Below are positions 6,979 to 15,814 of a stretch of DNA of 15,814 bases, piece after piece. Origin of the DNA: a virus (lineage: Duplodnaviria; Heunggongvirae; Uroviricota; Caudoviricetes); IMG/VR virus record IMGVR_UViG_2531839555_000011, positions 1-15,814 of that record. One strand, given 5' to 3'. Every line of letters starts with the position of its first letter. Within the stretch, counting starts at the first letter, position 1. Both the position numbers and the translations under genes were made by a program. Under the pieces are notes generated by a model, which saw only the letters and a program-made list of their open reading frames with translations, made no database searches and was not told the origin of the DNA.

Positions 6979-8148
6979 CTAGCCAGCTTTCATTTCCAGA
7001 ATTTTGATGGCGTTTGAATCCACCACACCACCGCCCAGATATTTATCCGTGTGGACCTTGTAGAATCCGGGTTCAGTAATGTTGTCCGGTCGGGTGCGAA
7101 TCCCTGTTACATGATCAACGATGAAATAACCACGACTGAAATCGCCAACCGCTAGCGGTGCTTTTCCTGCGCCGATGTCCGGCATGGACTCCAGGCAGTA
7201 AACAGGACGACCAAGCAACATATCCGGCGCACCTTCTTTAAGGCTGTCGCGCCAGATATAATCGCCGTTCTCATTTTTCAGCTTCTGTAGTGTCCCTGCC
7301 GTGCCCGAGTTCATCACCCAGACGGCATTTTTGCGGTATTTCGCTTTCAGCTTGTAGAGAATGTCGATCAGTTCGTCCGCTGTAATGGCGGTTCCACTTG
7401 CCGCTACTATTTTTTCAATGGTGCCAAAAGCGCGGGTTTTGTCACTGGTCGCCGCACGGGTGTAAGCCATGAAGCCTTTCGGCTTGCCGTTACCGTCGCC
7501 ATTAACAAAATCATCCTCTTCGGTGCTGGCGAACGTGTCGGCAATTTCGGAGGATAACCAGCCCAGAATATCCACCTCTGAAAAATCCAGGATTTCCTGC
7601 GTGGTTTTCGGGTAGGCGTAGATCGGATTCAGCTTGATGGTTACGCGTTCAATTTTCGGGGTGTTGGTTTCACTGCGTGCGCTGCCTTCTGTGCCTCGTC
7701 CTACAGTTGCGCCGCCAGTGGAAACCAGTTTCTGAAACTCATTTGATTTTGCGGTCTTCACGGTCGCGATCACGCGCATAACACTGTCATCCTGTAGCTG
7801 GCGCATGACTTCGCGATCAAGCTCAGGAATTACGGTATATCCGCCATCCCTGCCGCTGTCAGTGCTGGTGGACAGTGATCGCACATCTCCGGTTACGATG
7901 TAGTTACGCAATTCATCAGATGATAATTTCTGGATGCCCGTTCCTGGCTTGCTGCGTTCTTCATCAGCCACAGACTCGAGGCGGGAAATTTCTGTGTCGA
8001 GGGCATCAGCTTTTGCACGCAGTTCATCAAACTGTTTGCCTTCTTCAGCGTTCAGACTACGGTTTTCACTGTCGGCTTTTTCCAGCAGGGATCGCATCTG
8101 GTTTTTCAGGGCGTTTTTTTGCTGGCGGAGTTCGATTAATTTCTTCAT
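6979..8148 (-). CDS. Major capsid protein (HK97 fold) with N-terminal scaffolding-like coiled coil
   Basis: 389 aa. N-terminal about 100 aa is charged and coiled-coil-like (delta-domain-like); C-terminal core has HK97 MCP-like motifs (AVGDFSRGY). Confidence 0.9.
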   Translation of the reverse strand: MKKLIELRQQKNALKNQMRSLLEKADSENRSLNAEEGKQFDELRAKADALDTEISRLESVADEERSKPGTGIQKLSSDELRNYIVTGDVRSLSTSTDSGRDGGYTVIPELDREVMRQLQDDSVMRVIATVKTAKSNEFQKLVSTGGATVGRGTEGSARSETNTPKIERVTIKLNPIYAYPKTTQEILDFSEVDILGWLSSEIADTFASTEEDDFVNGDGNGKPKGFMAYTRAATSDKTRAFGTIEKIVAASGTAITADELIDILYKLKAKYRKNAVWVMNSGTAGTLQKLKNENGDYIWRDSLKEGAPDMLLGRPVYCLESMPDIGAGKAPLAVGDFSRGYFIVDHVTGIRTRPDNITEPGFYKVHTDKYLGGGVVDSNAIKILEMKAG

Positions 8149-8375
8149 GAAGGTTTTCTCGTATTGGTTAAGATTCAGGACGTGAAACCAACACGGAGGG
8201 AGCGCCGCCCGACACTCTCGGCATCTCGCAGATCAACCCGGCATCGCGCAGGGGGTCAGGCGGCATTGTGGCGGCTCACGTCTGAGTGCCACACGCCAAC
8301 ATATACATAAAAATCAGTATGTAAATATCAGCCAGAATCACTGAACAGCCAGAAACAACCACGAACAAATAATTT

Positions 8376-8410
8376 ACAAAACCTGAAAAGAAAACCCGGA
8401 AAAATCCGGG
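8376..8410 (-). terminator. Rho-independent terminator ending the replication operon
   Basis: On the minus strand, CCCGG-atttttt-CCGGG followed by TTTTCTTTTCAGGTTTTG, 12 nt after the stop of the 82-aa gene. Confidence 0.6.
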
Positions 8411-8421
8411 CCTTTATCGCT

Positions 8422-8670
8422 TTACTGTTTCATGGAATCCCGCATTCTGCGTCTTATTTTCCACAGATATTCGATCATCGCTTCCACCTGCTCACGGTTG
8501 GTTGCGAAAATTTCCCCGGTCAGTGAGCTGCGCAGAAAATCATGATGATCCACAACAAATAACGCATCGGAAGAAAGCAGACGGCGATATTTTTTTGCTG
8601 TCGTGGTTTCCAGATCATCAATACCATGAAACTTTTTATGTTGCTGAACTTCTTCAAATGTCACTGGCAT
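8422..8670 (-). CDS. Hypothetical 82-aa protein
   Basis: ATG at 8670-8668 with a strong AGGGGG Shine-Dalgarno at 5-nt spacing; followed by a terminator. No family recognised. Confidence 0.6.
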   Translation of the reverse strand: MPVTFEEVQQHKKFHGIDDLETTTAKKYRRLLSSDALFVVDHHDFLRSSLTGEIFATNREQVEAMIEYLWKIRRRMRDSMKQ

Positions 8671-8687
8671 GTATCCCCCTGTTATCG

Positions 8688-9110
8688 CTAAAAGGGTATG
8701 TTATCCCCATATGGATCATCATTCCCCGCCTGTTGCTTAGCCCTATTTAGAGCGTCAGTAGCCTGGCCCTGCTGGCCTTTTTTGCCACCAGGTCGCGCCG
8801 TTCTGGCACTGATTACGCTGTCTGCGATAACCTGCCAGCCCTGCCGCGTTTCCCCGTTCTGTCCGGTCCACTGGCTCACCTGCATGTTACCCGCCACGCT
8901 CAGGAGTTCACCCTTGCGGTGCTTTGCCAGTGCTTCGGCCTGTCTGCCAAACGCCAGGACGGATAACCACATCGTCGCCGTTCCGTCATCTGCCTGGCTG
9001 CACGGCAGGGTGACCGCCATGCTCGCCATAGCCATTTGTGTGCCCTTGCTGGTGGTCTTTAACTGTGGGTCAGCCACCAGCCGCCCGTAAGCCGCTATCT
9101 GTGCTGTCAT
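8688..9110 (-). CDS. Single-stranded DNA-binding protein-like
   Basis: 140 aa, OB-fold-like N-terminus, Gly/Gln-rich linker and an acidic C-terminal tip DDPYGDNIPF resembling the SSB ...DDDIPF tail. GGAGAG Shine-Dalgarno; ATGA overlap with the upstream 81-aa gene. Confidence 0.75.
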   Translation of the reverse strand: MTAQIAAYGRLVADPQLKTTSKGTQMAMASMAVTLPCSQADDGTATMWLSVLAFGRQAEALAKHRKGELLSVAGNMQVSQWTGQNGETRQGWQVIADSVISARTARPGGKKGQQGQATDALNRAKQQAGNDDPYGDNIPF

Positions 9111-9352
9111 GCTGTCTGCTCTCCGGTTTTAACGTTGATGGTTGTCACCTGTTCCGCTTCGGCAATCTCCCGTTCTGTCAGCGTGGCAAAGTTTGCAGCT
9201 GCCGTTGTCATGAATGAGCTAATCAGTTCGGGATGTGCTTTCGCATATCCTTCCCCGGCGTTGCGGTCGATGATTTTTATCGACACCCTTAACCAGTGTT
9301 CCGTCAAATCAAGGGCGTGCGATTGTGATTTTTTTGTGTGCTTCGCTGTCAT
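9107..9352 (-). CDS. Hypothetical 81-aa protein
   Basis: ORF translationally coupled (ATGA) to the SSB-like gene; weak Shine-Dalgarno. No family recognised. Confidence 0.5.
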   Translation of the reverse strand: MTAKHTKKSQSHALDLTEHWLRVSIKIIDRNAGEGYAKAHPELISSFMTTAAANFATLTEREIAEAEQVTTINVKTGEQTA

Positions 9353-9402
9353 AGGCTTTATCTCACAGCAGTAAATTAAAATTTTTGCGTTTTAACCCTT
9401 CA

Positions 9403-9626
9403 CCTGTTCACCTTTTGATATTTTATCTTTTAATTCATAATGTTAAGGGGTGAACAGTTTCACAAAAACTATTCACCAACTGTTCACCACTGTTCACCCT
9501 TGAAGCTCAATAAACAATCAAAAAGGTGAACAGTGAATAGTTTGGTGAACAGTTCATAAATAACTGTTCACCCTATAATATACTGATACAAAAGATATTT
9601 ATGACAGGGTGAACAGTGGTGAACAG
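9403..9626. repeat. Iteron-type replication origin (9 copies of GGTGAACAG/CTGTTCACC)
   Basis: Exact 9-mers at 9403, 9449, 9480, 9490, 9525, 9544, 9564, 9608 and 9618 in both orientations plus partial copies, with an AT-rich tract at 9574-9606, immediately 3' of the primase-helicase gene. Confidence 0.8.
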
Positions 9627-9639
9627 TTATTCCATAAGT

Positions 9640-11457
9640 TTAATTTTTGCTATCGTCATTAGTGACCGATACACATGATGGCATCCAGTCTTCTGATTCC
9701 TCCGTCAGTGTCACGTTTGAACGCAAACCGTGCTTCGTTTTCCGTTTCATATACTCCCTGCCATATTCCGCCATTGCCCCCGGCATATCTTTACCGAAGC
9801 GCGTCAGTGTTACAGGTTTACCAAACCCATGTGCCTTCATATAAGCCAGATAGGCATGATAGAGATACCTGCGCGGGCTGAATGGCACAATTTCAGCATT
9901 ACCCACTAACAGGCCATCACACATTACCGACGCCATGAGATAGCCGCAGAAGTCCACCAGCGAATCCCCCTCTCGCTTTATCGCCAGTGCTTCTTCAGAT
10001 TTCTGCTGCTCATATAACAGGCGTCTGGCTTCGTCCTGGTCAGCAAACCGTGTAAGCAGATGGCGAATCACTACCGCCAGCTCACCTTCTATTTTTTCCG
10101 CCAGCATTGGATCACGTTCGTTCTCCGGTACAACTTCCGAAAAATTGAATATCACCCGACGACGTGAGATCCCCCCGCTGCGGTCACTGAATGACATGGC
10201 GTTATTGTTAACCGCCAGCACTACTGCCGGAATACGCGTTGAGTAGGGGGCTTTGTGTTTCGGGTCAATTGCCACCTTGTCACCGCCTGTAATAGCCTTA
10301 ATCCCTGCCCCATCACCAGCGTAGCGGGTCATATCCGGCATGATAATCAGCGAAAAGCCAACCACTAACGCGCGTTCCCTTGCATCTTCCAGCGCCTTCA
10401 TGCTTGCCGATACTGTGTTGGCCTTACCCGCCAGCATGGTGCAAATCTCCGCCATCACGCTTTTACCACTTCCCCCTGGACCTGTTACCTCAATGAATAA
10501 CTGCCAGTCGTACCGGTTCGCCAGCACCATGAATAATGCAGCCAGTACGCGATCCGCCTTGCGGTCATTCTCAGCCACCGAACGGCGTAACCACTTCCAG
10601 AAATTCGGCGCATGTGTTGCCAGCGTTTCCCCCTCTGCTGGTGGGCTGAAAGGTAATTCACTGGCAATTAACAACCAGTCGTTTTTGTTATGCTCCCGAA
10701 AATTACCTGTTCTGGTATCAAATACCCCGTTACTGAATCCAATCAGGTTACGGGCTGTATTCCCCATTACAGGCAAACTTAACTTCATGGTATCGACCGC
10801 CGATTTAATGGCGTTCTGCGAATAGCTGATCTCCGCATCAATGAAAATCTGCGCCATAGCTCGCTGTAATTCTTTATCCTGTACTGGCTCCCATACAACG
10901 CCGTTGTAATGGTGAACAGTGTCAGAGTCGGCATGAATCGCCAGTTCACCGCCATAATGTGCCAGGAGAACTTCGCCGCGTTGACTTGCTCCCATCTGGT
11001 TAAGCGCCAGTGATGAAGCGTTATCGTCTTTTACCCGCTCTTTTTTCTTTACAGGCAGTTCAACTACCTTTTTCTTTTCCGCCAGCTCTGCCCGTTCACG
11101 TTCCAGATATTCGCGCCAGTTCTCCCGTTTCTGGCTGTGCATTCCTTCAGAGTAATAATCAGCATCCCTGACACCTGCCGCTGCCAGTTTCTGCCCGATG
11201 GTATTAACAAGCCCCGGACGCAATAACCCCGCCTGATAGAGACGCACGCGATAGCGTCCGTCCGGTACGATTTGCAGGTTGTCCAGTTCGGCAAGTTGTT
11301 GCTCTCCAAGCCAGACAGGAGGCACGTTATCGCCAGCCAGTCGCCCGTCCTGTTCCTGCCACTGTTTCGCATGTGCCCACGCATCACTACCCGCAAAAAT
11401 GATGACTTCCGTCATTTTGTCACGCGGCTGGTGTTTTAAATTTGGCGCTTTTTTCAT
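9640..11457 (-). CDS. Replication initiator: primase / SF3 helicase
   Basis: Start at ATG 11457-11455 (MKKAPNLK...) with GGAGAG Shine-Dalgarno; Walker A GPGGSGKS and Walker B-like LIIMPD; about 605 aa. Domain architecture consistent with P4/PICI primase-helicases. Confidence 0.85.
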   Translation of the reverse strand: MKKAPNLKHQPRDKMTEVIIFAGSDAWAHAKQWQEQDGRLAGDNVPPVWLGEQQLAELDNLQIVPDGRYRVRLYQAGLLRPGLVNTIGQKLAAAGVRDADYYSEGMHSQKRENWREYLERERAELAEKKKVVELPVKKKERVKDDNASSLALNQMGASQRGEVLLAHYGGELAIHADSDTVHHYNGVVWEPVQDKELQRAMAQIFIDAEISYSQNAIKSAVDTMKLSLPVMGNTARNLIGFSNGVFDTRTGNFREHNKNDWLLIASELPFSPPAEGETLATHAPNFWKWLRRSVAENDRKADRVLAALFMVLANRYDWQLFIEVTGPGGSGKSVMAEICTMLAGKANTVSASMKALEDARERALVVGFSLIIMPDMTRYAGDGAGIKAITGGDKVAIDPKHKAPYSTRIPAVVLAVNNNAMSFSDRSGGISRRRVIFNFSEVVPENERDPMLAEKIEGELAVVIRHLLTRFADQDEARRLLYEQQKSEEALAIKREGDSLVDFCGYLMASVMCDGLLVGNAEIVPFSPRRYLYHAYLAYMKAHGFGKPVTLTRFGKDMPGAMAEYGREYMKRKTKHGLRSNVTLTEESEDWMPSCVSVTNDDSKN

Positions 11458-11753
11458 TTCTGCTCTCTCCACGCGGCAATCATGTTTTTCAGTTCCTGTA
11501 GTTTTTTATCAACATCCATACATGACACATGGTTATTTCTGGAAAGCGGGATTTCCCGCCGGAATCTGCAAATAAAGATCTCCACGTTCAGCGAACTATG
11601 AAATGAATAGCCATCACGAATAAAATAAACACGGTCAAACATCAGCTCTTTTACCGTTACTCTGTTACCGTTCTTATCCAGATAAATAGCGCCGGGGATA
11701 ATTTTTGGGTGTGCATAACCGCTGGCAGTCAAGCCAGATAAATATGTTCTCAT
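11454..11753 (-). CDS. Hypothetical 99-aa protein coupled to the primase
   Basis: ATGA overlap with the primase start. About 38% GC, lower than the element backbone. No family recognised. Confidence 0.55.
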   Translation of the reverse strand: MRTYLSGLTASGYAHPKIIPGAIYLDKNGNRVTVKELMFDRVYFIRDGYSFHSSLNVEIFICRFRREIPLSRNNHVSCMDVDKKLQELKNMIAAWREQK

Positions 11754-11759
11754 GATTAT

Positions 11760-12080
11760 TTATCCCCGATTTGAATCAGTATTCGCTTTCTTTATGGCAT
11801 TTAATGCATCTGTGGCATTATCAATGGTGCACCGTAACGAAATATCAAACTGCCCAAGCATTGCCAGTAACAAGCCAATATTCCCCATGTCAATGCGCAT
11901 AGCCTTTTCGTCATATTCCTCATTTTCTGACGCATACCACATCAGGTTACCAATTGACGCAACAGCCATTGATATATTGTCAGTAGCCGCATCCGCAGCA
12001 GAATAAACCTTTTTAGCAATATCATGCTCACAGTTAAAATGCGGATTAATCAGGTACTGGTAATTGGTCATGTCAGGCAT
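11760..12080 (-). CDS. Hypothetical 106-aa acidic protein
   Basis: Strong AGGGGGG Shine-Dalgarno before ATG 12080-12078; AT-rich coding sequence. No family recognised. Confidence 0.55.
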   Translation of the reverse strand: MPDMTNYQYLINPHFNCEHDIAKKVYSAADAATDNISMAVASIGNLMWYASENEEYDEKAMRIDMGNIGLLLAMLGQFDISLRCTIDNATDALNAIKKANTDSNRG

Positions 12081-12370: not shown

Positions 12371-12419
12371 ATGGTAATTACCATGTAACTATAGTAATTA
12401 AGGGTAATTACCATGTCAA
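12371..12419. promoter_or_regulatory. Palindromic operators overlapping divergent promoters
   Basis: ATGGTAATTACCAT (12371-12384) and GGTAATTACCAT (12403-12414) 30 bp apart, plus degenerate half-sites. On the minus strand TTGACA (12419-12414), a 17-nt spacer and TACTAT (12396-12391) form a sigma70-like promoter with the second operator inside the spacer. Confidence 0.5.
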
Positions 12420-12586
12420 CACCATTAGAGAAACGATCGCCACCATACCAAATGCGACTACCAGAAGAATTTAGAGCGCAACTTGAGGAGGCAGCCAAGG
12501 CAGACGGCGACACCTCATTAGCTACTTGGATTAAACGAATACTCCGCAAAGAATTACAACAGCGCGGTATCGAGCCCAAAGGCTGA
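12413..12586 (+). CDS. Arc/Mnt-like ribbon-helix-helix repressor (57 aa)
   Basis: Translated by hand: MSTPLEKRSPPYQMRLPEEFRAQLEEAAKADGDTSLATWIKRILRKELQQRGIEPKG. The P-x-Y/F-x-M/L-R-L/W-P...IxxRIxxxL pattern matches the P22 Arc beta-strand plus two helices. Too short for the 60-aa ORF track; only plus-strand gene in the element. Confidence 0.7.
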   Translation: MSTPLEKRSPPYQMRLPEEFRAQLEEAAKADGDTSLATWIKRILRKELQQRGIEPKG

Positions 12587-13410: not shown

Positions 13411-13695
13411 TTAAGCAGATTTGCGGCTGTACGGGTTATTGACGTTTTCCACGGCAGGCGGATTACGAACCCACCAGAGCACATCCGAAAGAAGCCAGGC
13501 ACAGCTGTTGCGGCCAAAGTGACAGCGCGGCGGGAAGCGCCCCTGCTGTTCCATCTTCCAGCGGCTCGAACGAGAAAGACTGGTGATCTCGCTGCATTCA
13601 TCTTCGCGGATTCGGCGATCGAACTTGAAGCCGTACTCCTCCAGAATGGTGCGGCGTTGTTCAGGATTTGGCGGGGTAAAGGTGATAATTTGCAT
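13411..13695 (-). CDS. alpA: AlpA-family regulator/excisionase-like protein
   Basis: Start at internal ATG 13695-13693 with GGAGG Shine-Dalgarno. C-terminal SLSRSSRWKMEQQGRFPPRCHFGRNSCAWLLSDVLWWV matches the AlpA helix-turn-helix pattern (LSRSTIYR..G.FP.P...G.R...W...E...W). Confidence 0.8.
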   Translation of the reverse strand: MQIITFTPPNPEQRRTILEEYGFKFDRRIREDECSEITSLSRSSRWKMEQQGRFPPRCHFGRNSCAWLLSDVLWWVRNPPAVENVNNPYSRKSA

Positions 13696-13790
13696 GTTGC
13701 CTCCACTGTTTCTAAGTTTGTGGGGGCTATTGTTATCCTTGTGATTGGATGTCACACTAGACGAAAATTAAATTGTTTTGACCACCAAGA

Positions 13791-14594
13791 TTAAGGAAGA
13801 ATTTTTCTATCCTGAAGTTCTGACCTGATTTTTTCTATAGAAGAAATTGAGAAGATTTTTTCTATATTTGGCTTTACGGTTTGCGCTATCTGCGTTGAGT
13901 CATACTCTCCGTTCGGAAACACAGCCACAGCAAGCACGCCATTGGTGACGCATGCCCCGCGAGATTTAGCCCAGATCATCAAATCAACCACGGGGAAAAG
14001 TGAATAATCGTATACCTTTTTTTTAATTGTTTCCCATGACTGGTATGTTTTTTCCTTTTCTTTTATTTTTAATTCCTCACGCCAATTCTTGAGGTTTTTT
14101 TCAAACACATCAATCAATAAATCATCCGGGCGTGACAAATCAACTTTAATAAAAAGGTCATTTGGTTCCAAAAATGAGCTAACACTTGTAAATGAATGGT
14201 AAACTAAATTTTCAGCCGTTCCCGTAAAATTATTTTCCATATAATTATCTACAGCATCTTTCATATAAATAAAGTCTTCAATGGACATTGGTCGTAACGC
14301 AACCCCACCAGACAAAACACCTTCTCTTTTAATAGGAAGTTTAAACGCATCATAGAAGTACGTAGCTCTATCAATCGCATTAGCGACCGCGCCATTTCCA
14401 AGTATCCTTCCTACTTCATCGTTATTTGTAAGAGGTTCATTATAAAAAGACCCGCCATATCGATAGAAGTTTTCAAGCATGTCATATCTAACAACCAACT
14501 GATAAAATAAGTCTTTATCTGACATGCCAATAAATTGAGTGTAGTTATCTAAATCAAACCATGTTGGCAAATCTTTTTTGTGGCTAATTCTCAT
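13791..14594 (-). CDS. AT-rich 267-aa cargo protein of unknown function, coupled to int
   Basis: 804-nt ORF; 60-nt samples give about 25-45% GC against about 50% in int. ATG 14594-14592 overlaps the int stop as ATGA. No recognisable catalytic or DNA-binding motifs. Confidence 0.7.
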   Translation of the reverse strand: MRISHKKDLPTWFDLDNYTQFIGMSDKDLFYQLVVRYDMLENFYRYGGSFYNEPLTNNDEVGRILGNGAVANAIDRATYFYDAFKLPIKREGVLSGGVALRPMSIEDFIYMKDAVDNYMENNFTGTAENLVYHSFTSVSSFLEPNDLFIKVDLSRPDDLLIDVFEKNLKNWREELKIKEKEKTYQSWETIKKKVYDYSLFPVVDLMIWAKSRGACVTNGVLAVAVFPNGEYDSTQIAQTVKPNIEKIFSISSIEKIRSELQDRKILP

Positions 14595-15814
14595 TTTTCA
14601 CCAGCCTTTAAAATAACGATATTAGAGTGATTACCCGCGAGAAGTTCTAAGCGGTCATACCACTTGTTCAGCGCGTCCAGCTTCTCCGGTAAGTAAAGAC
14701 TACGGTTATAAATCGCCATAACTCCCGGCAAGGCATGGCCCAACAGCAGCTCGACTATATGCGGTGCTATACCCATATTGTTTAGCCCCGTAGAAAACGT
14801 CCGACGCAGATCGTGAAGTGTCCACGGCTCGTTATGGTGAAAATCTTTAAAAAGCCTGCGCCCTTTCAATGATACAGCCTGACGGGTACGATCTTCGCCC
14901 AGTAACAAACCTGTTTTCCCTGTCTCGCGCTTTAACTCTTCCAGCCACGGGCGTATAGCTTCAGGTATCGACCTCACGATTTTCTCTCGGGTTTTGCTAT
15001 GCTCTTTCGGTACAGTCCAAATCCACGATGTAAAATCCCACTCTGACCATCGAGAAAGGCGAACTTCCATCGTTCGCGCACCAAAAAGCACCAGCATTTT
15101 GAGCAGACGTGAATAATACGGCTGCTGATCATCGCTATCTGTACAGCGCCACACATCAGCCAGCTCGCTATCTGACAATACGCGATCACGTTGACCAGAT
15201 GGCTGGCCTACATCCTGAATGGTGAGAAAGGCCAGAGCATCACTGGCAGCATAACGGCGAACCTTGCAGAAACGTAACGCCTGTTTAGAAATCTGGAACA
15301 TGCGGCCGGCGGTCATGGGTTTAGTCTGGTTTATTTCGTCAAAACAGGCCACCCAATGGCGGGTTTCACATCTGGTGATCGGATAACGACCAAGGCGCGG
15401 GTAAATATGCTTGCGTAGCTGCGCCCTCACCAACGCCTCATCACTGCGCTTTCTCCTGGCGTAATTCACCAACCAATATTCCAGGGCGTCTTTAACCGTT
15501 ACAGGCTTAAGCGTTTCTTCTGTGCTCAGCTCAATCTCAGTTTTCGGATCAAGCCCACCAGCCAGCCACTGGCGACACTGTTCCCGCTTTTCTCGCGCAA
15601 GTTTTAGCGGCATATCAGGGTAACGGCCAAGCGTTAAACGTTCGAGTTTGCTACCCCTTCCTCCCAACCGGTATGAAAATACCCAGCTAACGTTACCTTG
15701 CTTCGAGACCTTAACGCTTAGCCCCTCACCATCGGCAATCATGATCGGCGCTTCACGCTCAGAACCCAGCAATGCTTTTAGCTTTTTGTCGCTCAGTTTG
15801 TTTGTGCCAGCCAT
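14591..15814 (-). CDS. int: Tyrosine integrase, P4-like family
   Basis: 407 aa starting at the window edge (ATG 15814-15812). N-terminal arm-binding-like region (GEGLSVKVSKQGNVSWVFSYRLGG...), C-terminal catalytic residues (HDLRRT, LLGHA, a Tyr near the C-terminus). Confidence 0.93.
   Translation of the reverse strand: MAGTNKLSDKKLKALLGSEREAPIMIADGEGLSVKVSKQGNVSWVFSYRLGGRGSKLERLTLGRYPDMPLKLAREKREQCRQWLAGGLDPKTEIELSTEETLKPVTVKDALEYWLVNYARRKRSDEALVRAQLRKHIYPRLGRYPITRCETRHWVACFDEINQTKPMTAGRMFQISKQALRFCKVRRYAASDALAFLTIQDVGQPSGQRDRVLSDSELADVWRCTDSDDQQPYYSRLLKMLVLFGARTMEVRLSRWSEWDFTSWIWTVPKEHSKTREKIVRSIPEAIRPWLEELKRETGKTGLLLGEDRTRQAVSLKGRRLFKDFHHNEPWTLHDLRRTFSTGLNNMGIAPHIVELLLGHALPGVMAIYNRSLYLPEKLDALNKWYDRLELLAGNHSNIVILKAGEK

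Follow-up and report, generated by a model that had tools for sequence, protein, structure and literature searches.

A DUF6387 gene overlapping the integrase gene of an Escherichia coli capsid-forming PICI, a candidate accessory of satellite excision and induction

The DNA analysed here, referred to as the window throughout, is 15,814 nucleotides long, and a locus identical to it is present in Escherichia coli strain 3150, with hpt and gcd on either side. The RefSeq annotation of that locus comprises int, a DUF6387 family protein, an AlpA-type regulator and an ORF6N protein, furthermore YlcI/YnfO, Icd-like and DUF4222 proteins, a primase and SSB, and finally the major capsid, prohead protease, portal, connector, HNH, TerS and TerL proteins; tail genes are not annotated by RefSeq in this element. 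Because this gene set, with its int, alpA, primase, capsid and terminase genes, matches that of the capsid-forming PICIs (cf-PICIs) such as EcCIEDL933 (Alqurainy et al., bioRxiv 10.1101/2022.09.08.507074), the element is, by its gene content, an E. coli cf-PICI satellite inserted between hpt and gcd. AlpA is the master activator of Gram-negative PICIs (PMC11773190; bioRxiv 10.1101/2022.09.08.507074), and alpA is induced by the helper phage via a route that is unexplained (PMC11773190). The region from int to alpA occurs at ≥99% identity in 12 of 5426 complete E. coli genomes. Its features are collected in Table 1.

Two further properties of the element concern its regulation and its modular composition. 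The sequence GGTAATTACCATG, which has the palindromic core GGTAATTACC, occurs twice as an exact copy (12373-12385 and 12403-12415). The second copy overlaps the start codon of a 57-aa YlcI/YnfO-like ORF (12413-12586, plus strand), which points away from the icd-primase operon, and the paired sites look like operators of the satellite's regulatory switch. The loci L051-L057 closely match positions 6979-12000 of the window, with 91-100% identity in icd, DUF4222, primase, SSB and capsid genes (primase 99-100%), whereas their int, DUF6387 and alpA genes show 48%, 35% and 47% identity, respectively; therefore, the integration/regulation and the replication/capsid modules are swapped as blocks.

The gene between int and alpA, here designated orf267, has a GC content of 0.358 (GC3 0.328), compared to a window average of 0.496 and to 0.502 and 0.551 in int and alpA, respectively. 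Given the composition of the region itself, 267 codons without a stop are expected with a probability of 5.5e-10, and the longest open frame among 2000 shuffled sequences had 184 codons; each of the other five frames of the region contains 13-34 stops. Orf267 is a real gene, and the initial annotation, which had described an uninterrupted AT-rich frame of 804 nt whose ATG overlaps the int stop codon, is borne out in both respects. On the plus strand, positions 14591-14594 read tcat, the stop codon TGA of int being located at 14591-14593 and the ATG of orf267 at 14592-14594. The preceding sequence GGTGAAAA encodes the C-terminal residues G-E-K of the integrase and resembles a weak Shine-Dalgarno sequence. 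From the overlap we infer that translation of orf267 is coupled to that of int and that the two genes are co-expressed.

Table 1 Features of the int-alpA region of the window and location of the second family of slot genes in related satellites
Feature	Locus	Coordinates	Strand	Description
int	window	14591..15814	minus	407-aa P4-type tyrosine integrase; Arm-DNA-bind_3, Phage_int_M and Phage_integrase domains
ATGA overlap of int and orf267	window	14591..14594	minus	4 nt common to int TGA and orf267 ATG
orf267	window	13791..14594	minus	267-aa ORF with ATG start; evidence from family, chance expectation and AlphaFold
Replaceable slot cassette	window	13730..14627		orf267, ~60 nt of 3' flank and last ~35 nt of int
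Cassette 3' flank, allele-specific	window	13728..13790	minus	identical only with same DUF6387 allele
alpA leader hairpin	window	13699..13727	minus	5' arm GCCCCCAC, 3' arm GTGGAGGC; pairs alpA Shine-Dalgarno
alpA	window	13411..13695	minus	94-aa AlpA-family regulator/excisionase; Pfam and RefSeq
Second slot family	L002	4399-5187	minus	
Second slot family	L020	1926-2750	minus	
Second slot family	L021	1923-2852	minus	
Second slot family	L022	1887-2936	minus	
Second slot family	L023	1863-2915	minus	
Second slot family	L024	1924-2853	minus	
Second slot family	L025	1967-2907	minus	
Second slot family	L092	7218-7991	plus	

The initial annotation had recognised no family for the encoded protein, which was mistaken. 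By its sequence, the orf267 protein is a full-length member of the Pfam family DUF6387 (PF19924; E = 4.4e-29, 102.3 bits at a gathering cut-off of 28.9), residues 2-249 being aligned to positions 3-249 of the 258-position model, and it is named "DUF6387 family protein" in RefSeq (WP_001222827.1). When 1.84 billion representatives were searched with a profile, 1305 clusters (counted at 50% identity) were retrieved at E ≤ 1e-3, nearly all of them single-domain proteins of 250-300 aa. The Pfam entry assigns no function to the family, and in the literature DUF6387 is mentioned in lists beside AlpA in genomic islands; judging by the papers that mention DUF6387, its int-alpA context, its behaviour as a cassette and its link to satellites as described below go beyond the entry. 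PADLOC-DB v2, a check proposed initially for a defence gene, contains no family matching the protein at E values up to 1, and NCBIfam has no match either. PHROGs gave a weak match only, to a group of unknown function (phrog_23422, E = 2.8e-6), and a sequence search of the PDB gave no meaningful match. The AlphaFold model, calculated with an alignment of 95 sequences, is all-helical with 12 helices (pLDDT 91, pTM 0.85); no known fold and no effector or catalytic domain is recognisable in it or in the sequence. The protein is predicted to be soluble and cytoplasmic without transmembrane segments and has a pI of 5.2 (family median 5.3), the centre being the most acidic part. Conservation within the family is high at residues 1-40 and 141-260 and low in the hypervariable part from 41 to 140. 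The conserved residues P9, F12, Y17, R35, L167, R171, Y196, D203, L204, W207, I215 and P226 form no recognisable catalytic motif. Neither Pfam nor hhalign detected a helix-turn-helix (HTH) motif; a likeness, seen by eye, of residues 200-217 to the AlpA/Xis-type HTH suspected in a second family of slot genes (see below) was supported neither by Pfam nor by hhalign against an AlpA alignment.

The genomic context of the family is uniform with respect to gene order. In all 46 loci that show the three genes (35 of them non-redundant, from at least 10 genera), the order is int, DUF6387, alpA. It was found with a ~405-aa P4-type integrase in six genomes, namely of Xenorhabdus, Tenebrionibacter, two Yersinia species, Enterobacter and Edaphovirga, and likewise in Serratia, Shigella/E. 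coli, other contigs and 38 IMG/VR contigs. In nine of ten distinct loci of other genera the int/DUF6387 junction is ATGA, and in every one of these loci the GC content of the DUF6387 gene is 9-19 points below that of both neighbours. Gaps instead of overlaps occur in L026 (91 nt) and in L090 and L066 (35-98 nt). Even members with only ~20-25% identity are located directly behind a P4-type int, with the exception of L069, where a 152-aa ORF overlapping int separates the two genes. A profile search seeded with such distant members yielded eight proteins only. In satellites of Proteus (L089, 1408-3091), two tandem overlapping paralogues of 290 and 275 aa are located between int and alpA. The remainder of the elements, which comprise small integrative satellites of several kinds, is more variable, as their replication modules contain D5-type primase, DUF927 or AAA_25/RepA and their insertion sites include gcd, yhdJ, rcnR and fis.

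Outside such islands the family is nearly absent. Among 50,697 phage records a single match was obtained, a fragment of 1.8 kb, and the only match among 72,556 plasmid records is itself a circular cf-PICI-like satellite. This record (L091; CP018459.1, 1-16971) is a circular "non-mobilizable plasmid" of Klebsiella pneumoniae of 16,971 bp, which carries int-DUF6387-alpA, capsid and terminase genes as well as a 1135-aa "tape measure" gene between terL and int, and it probably represents an excised or replicating form of a satellite caught in the assembly. Among the contexts seen, from 100% down to ~20% identity, none placed DUF6387 in a defence island, prophage or plasmid away from the int-alpA slot; the family is confined almost only to the int-alpA gap of small phage-parasitic islands. 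That the gene is a mere passenger, a decaying remnant or an AT-rich spacer that serves neither the satellite nor the host, is highly improbable. The occasional frameshifted or fragmented copies, seen in E. coli CFS3292 and in Xenorhabdus, and the lack of a known function of the family would fit such a view, but they have to be weighed against the frame kept open in AT-rich DNA, the large number of clusters of similar length with conserved motifs, the confidently predicted fold, and the start-stop overlap conserved across genera.

A gene in a corresponding position has been described for the PICMI satellites of Vibrio. There, "iolg" designates a gene directly downstream of int and overlapping it by 1, 4 or 13 nt, ATGA being the commonest junction, which is located between int and alpA (Barcia-Cruz et al. 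2024, PMC10803314). In PICMI115, deletion of iolg abolished helper-induced excision and transfer; complementation was performed with int and iolg supplied together, so that a cis or polar effect is possible (PMC10803314). [quoted passage not shown] Genes of this type are present in 21 of 35 PICMI subfamilies and belong to 13 unrelated families, while three subfamilies have none (PMC10803314). DUF6387 is not named in the supplements of that study. Orf267 has the positional properties of an iolg, as its start codon is part of the ATGA at the end of a P4-type int and the gene separates this int from alpA in a phage satellite. In both cases the position is filled by many unrelated families without known function, and some DUF6387 elements share an attachment-site core with the PICMIs: L037 and L059 contain the PICMI-like fis-end core AATACGGCATGAACTAA, in L059 ~90 nt upstream of int. 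A scan of IMG/VR DNA for this core retrieved enterobacterial cf-PICIs and unrelated contigs. The two systems differ in that orf267 resides in a 15-kb enterobacterial cf-PICI and iolg in a 6-kb Vibrio element; moreover, the requirement for excision is known for PICMI115 alone, and the likeness drawn here between orf267 and iolg concerns their architecture.

The int-alpA slot is an exchangeable cassette with sharp borders. When related elements are compared with the window in blocks of 50 nt, identity is 80-98% outside the cassette and 20-60% inside, the borders having been determined by sliding identity against L029, L002 and L087 and by an intergenic alignment; matches restricted to int begin at ~14628. 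DUF6387 alleles of only 29-37% identity are found between int genes of 93-98% and alpA genes of 81-97% identity. The window combines int type A with allele alpha, and L029 has int-A (94% identity) and an alpA of 97% identity together with allele beta (37%). Conversely, L087 has int-B (61%), with alpha and alpA both identical to those of the window, while int-B is combined with beta in L088, L030 and L036 and with gamma (29-31%) in L026. The DUF6387 alleles thus reassort freely with the two int types, and across elements their identity correlates more strongly with that of alpA (Spearman 0.72) than with that of int (0.37). A second int lineage behaves alike, having its own DUF6387 allele in 50 genomes and another gene in others with 92% identical flanks.

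The initial annotation had asked whether homologous satellites carry different genes in this slot, and this is the case. An E. coli element whose int and alpA are 92% and 95% identical to those of the window harbours an unrelated 262-aa gene, further relatives contain orphan genes for 216-350 aa or a third kind of gene, and in L085 the slot is empty. Most of these orphans belong to a second family, found in related E. coli satellites, in which the N-terminal ~40 aa are common (PLREYY..RAAELL.C...DLIHWA) and the remainder is hypervariable; they are AT-rich (GC 0.32-0.40) and acidic. A gene of this family rather than DUF6387 occupies the slot of an O157:H7 cf-PICI-like element, which is likely of the EcCIEDL933 type, and there it overlaps int by ATGA. 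The second family has no match in Pfam, and none of the alternative occupants matches PADLOC. The occupants other than DUF6387 are not recognisable as its remote relatives, as the hhalign probability was below 1% and an HMM search was negative as well; an AlpA/Xis-type HTH suspected by eye at the N-terminus of the second family was supported neither by Pfam nor by hhalign against the AlpA alignment. In the gcd-site island of E. coli Ec1120 (L027, 1-4687), the satellite backbone is replaced by a BREX system (brxR-like WYL gene, brxA, brxB, brxC), with one short ORF between int and BREX and an int of 86% nucleotide identity to that of the window.

This variability bears on the proposal made initially for orf267, namely that of an int-proximal anti-phage cargo. 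In such a role the protein would be a single-gene sentinel for defence or superinfection exclusion, expressed together with int, with a variable centre that recognises some component of the phage. A P4 defence hotspot was reportedly described by Rousset in 2022. Like the hotspots of P4 and the PICI ends, the orf267 slot is variable, int-proximal, AT-rich and located between conserved core genes, and the BREX system beside int at the same attachment site of an island with a related int is an example of defence genes in this neighbourhood. The deep allelic diversity of a sharply bounded, swappable cassette, the AT-richness in every genus and the tandem paralogues in Proteus would also suit a defence gene. 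In addition, immune systems at the 5' (int) or 3' ends of PICIs have been reported (Fillol-Salom 2022, as related in PMC11364771), and EcCIMP1 confers a superinfection immunity that is not explained by any known system (PMC11773190). Known cargo, however, is recognisable and is also found in other places, whereas DUF6387 has no match among defence models, contains no effector, enzymatic or membrane domain, and, unlike known defence genes, was never seen beyond the int-alpA slot and is essentially absent from phages and plasmids. Furthermore, loss of the positional analogue in PICMI115 affects excision, and the defence gene of that satellite is located elsewhere (PMC10803314). We therefore consider the defence reading to be partly supported and not the best-supported one, and as an explanation of orf267 it is the main competitor, though a rather unlikely one. 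The initial annotation had named, as evidence against this reading, a clear relationship to a housekeeping gene of satellites or conservation of the gene at its position, and half of this is found, as the architecture is that of iolg, which is needed for the excision of PICMI115 (PMC10803314).

The downstream border of the cassette is a hairpin in the alpA leader, directly upstream of the alpA ATG (13695), with a folding energy of -10.2 kcal/mol (z = -2.3), whose 3' arm is the alpA Shine-Dalgarno sequence. Other alpA clades retain the hairpin with compensatory changes in its arms (CCTCCAC/GTGGAGG, CCCTCAC/GTGAGGG, GCTCTCG/CGAGAGC and GTCCTC/GAGGAC), and in one clade seven U residues between hairpin and ATG give it a terminator-like appearance. 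At least four of the five Shine-Dalgarno positions of alpA are paired in 19 of 24 sequences, and three of the five exceptions pair them in longer folds. These statements are based on folds of the individual sequences, as RNAalifold gave no consensus with the arms one column apart in the MAFFT alignment. A simple scan of the orf267-alpA interval revealed neither a promoter nor a terminator consensus on the minus strand, and since no terminator was found after orf267, the hairpin could prevent read-through from int and orf267 from yielding AlpA. Alternatively, it may be the point at which helper induction acts.

The proximity to alpA raises the possibility that orf267 is a sensor of the helper phage that gates alpA. 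The precedent for such logic is Stl of the SaPIs, which is int-adjacent and constitutive and diverges extremely between similar islands, this divergence setting the specificity for the helper phage; Stl carries an unmistakable HTH at its N-terminus, and its gene is divergent to the operon that it represses. Accordingly, a constitutive, allele-specific protein would read a helper product by its variable centre and license either alpA expression or Int/AlpA-dependent excision, so that the allele decides which phages mobilise the island. Extended to the other slot families that overlap int, this would provide the missing helper sensor of Gram-negative PICIs and cf-PICIs. Several observations fit: orf267 is located immediately upstream of alpA, its cassette brings ~60 nt of allele-specific DNA up to the leader hairpin, the hypervariable centre is flanked by conserved ends, the DUF6387 allele co-varies with alpA, and the route of alpA induction awaits an explanation. 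The loss of excision on deletion of iolg in PICMI would likewise fit a positive sensor (PMC10803314). However, DUF6387 proteins differ from Stl in being acidic, in having no HTH detectable by Pfam or hhalign and in being encoded on the same strand as alpA; moreover, the flank contains no promoter consensus and satellites without a gene in the slot exist. In sum, the sensor has little probability in our view, be it as a gate of alpA or in the full form in which the allele selects the mobilising phages, and its extension to the further slot families is just as improbable.

By analogy to PICMI115, orf267 probably aids excision or induction of the island, and a role as an independent weapon against phages is less likely. 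More specifically, we tentatively favour, at somewhat below an even chance, an iolg-type accessory of the Int/AlpA excision-induction step that is coupled to int. According to this reading, the protein would be made continuously and at integrase-like levels in the integrated island through translational coupling, and upon arrival of a helper phage it would assist Int and AlpA in excising and inducing the island, as suggested by the iolg phenotype. Speculatively, the conserved helical segments at both termini, which include a weakly winged-helix-like subdomain, may contact Int, AlpA or the DNA of the attachment site or leader, and the hypervariable acidic centre may set an allele-specific specificity or ligand. 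The iolg-type reading is favoured because the int-DUF6387-alpA synteny extends through the family with the ATGA kept at most junctions, because the family is essentially absent elsewhere, matches no PADLOC or NCBIfam model and consists of cytoplasmic acidic proteins, and because the identity of DUF6387 follows that of alpA more than that of int. The PICMI115 precedent (PMC10803314) and the fis-end core in L037 and L059 point in the same direction. The reading is weakened by the fact that the slot gene is not universal, being replaced by an unrelated family or a third kind of gene or missing altogether, and by the reassortment of divergent alleles, which is not obviously compatible with a tight partnership in excision. 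Further points against it are the joint use of int and iolg in the PICMI complementation, the AT-richness and the tandem copies in Proteus, both characteristic of genes with an accessory or arms-race role, and the BREX system adjoining int in the island with a related integrase.

By analogy, orf267 may thus be regarded as a new member, from an enterobacterial cf-PICI, of the recently described class of int-overlapping genes, and as one that belongs to an already catalogued DUF. The authors of the PICMI study explicitly regard helper-phage sensing by Gram-negative PICIs and cf-PICIs, and the activation of alpA and excision, as an open question (PMC10803314). A large uncharacterised family of 1305 clusters is tied to one place, where it directly follows the gene of a P4-type integrase and immediately precedes alpA, and DUF6387 can be used as a marker in the annotation of satellites. 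For searches aimed at defence genes the locus advises caution, as the combination of variable, AT-rich and int-proximal does not by itself imply defence. If orf267 were a defence gene after all, it would represent a satellite-restricted single-gene system based on a new fold, and if it were the sensor of the helper phage, it would be a functional counterpart of SaPI Stl, again on a new fold.
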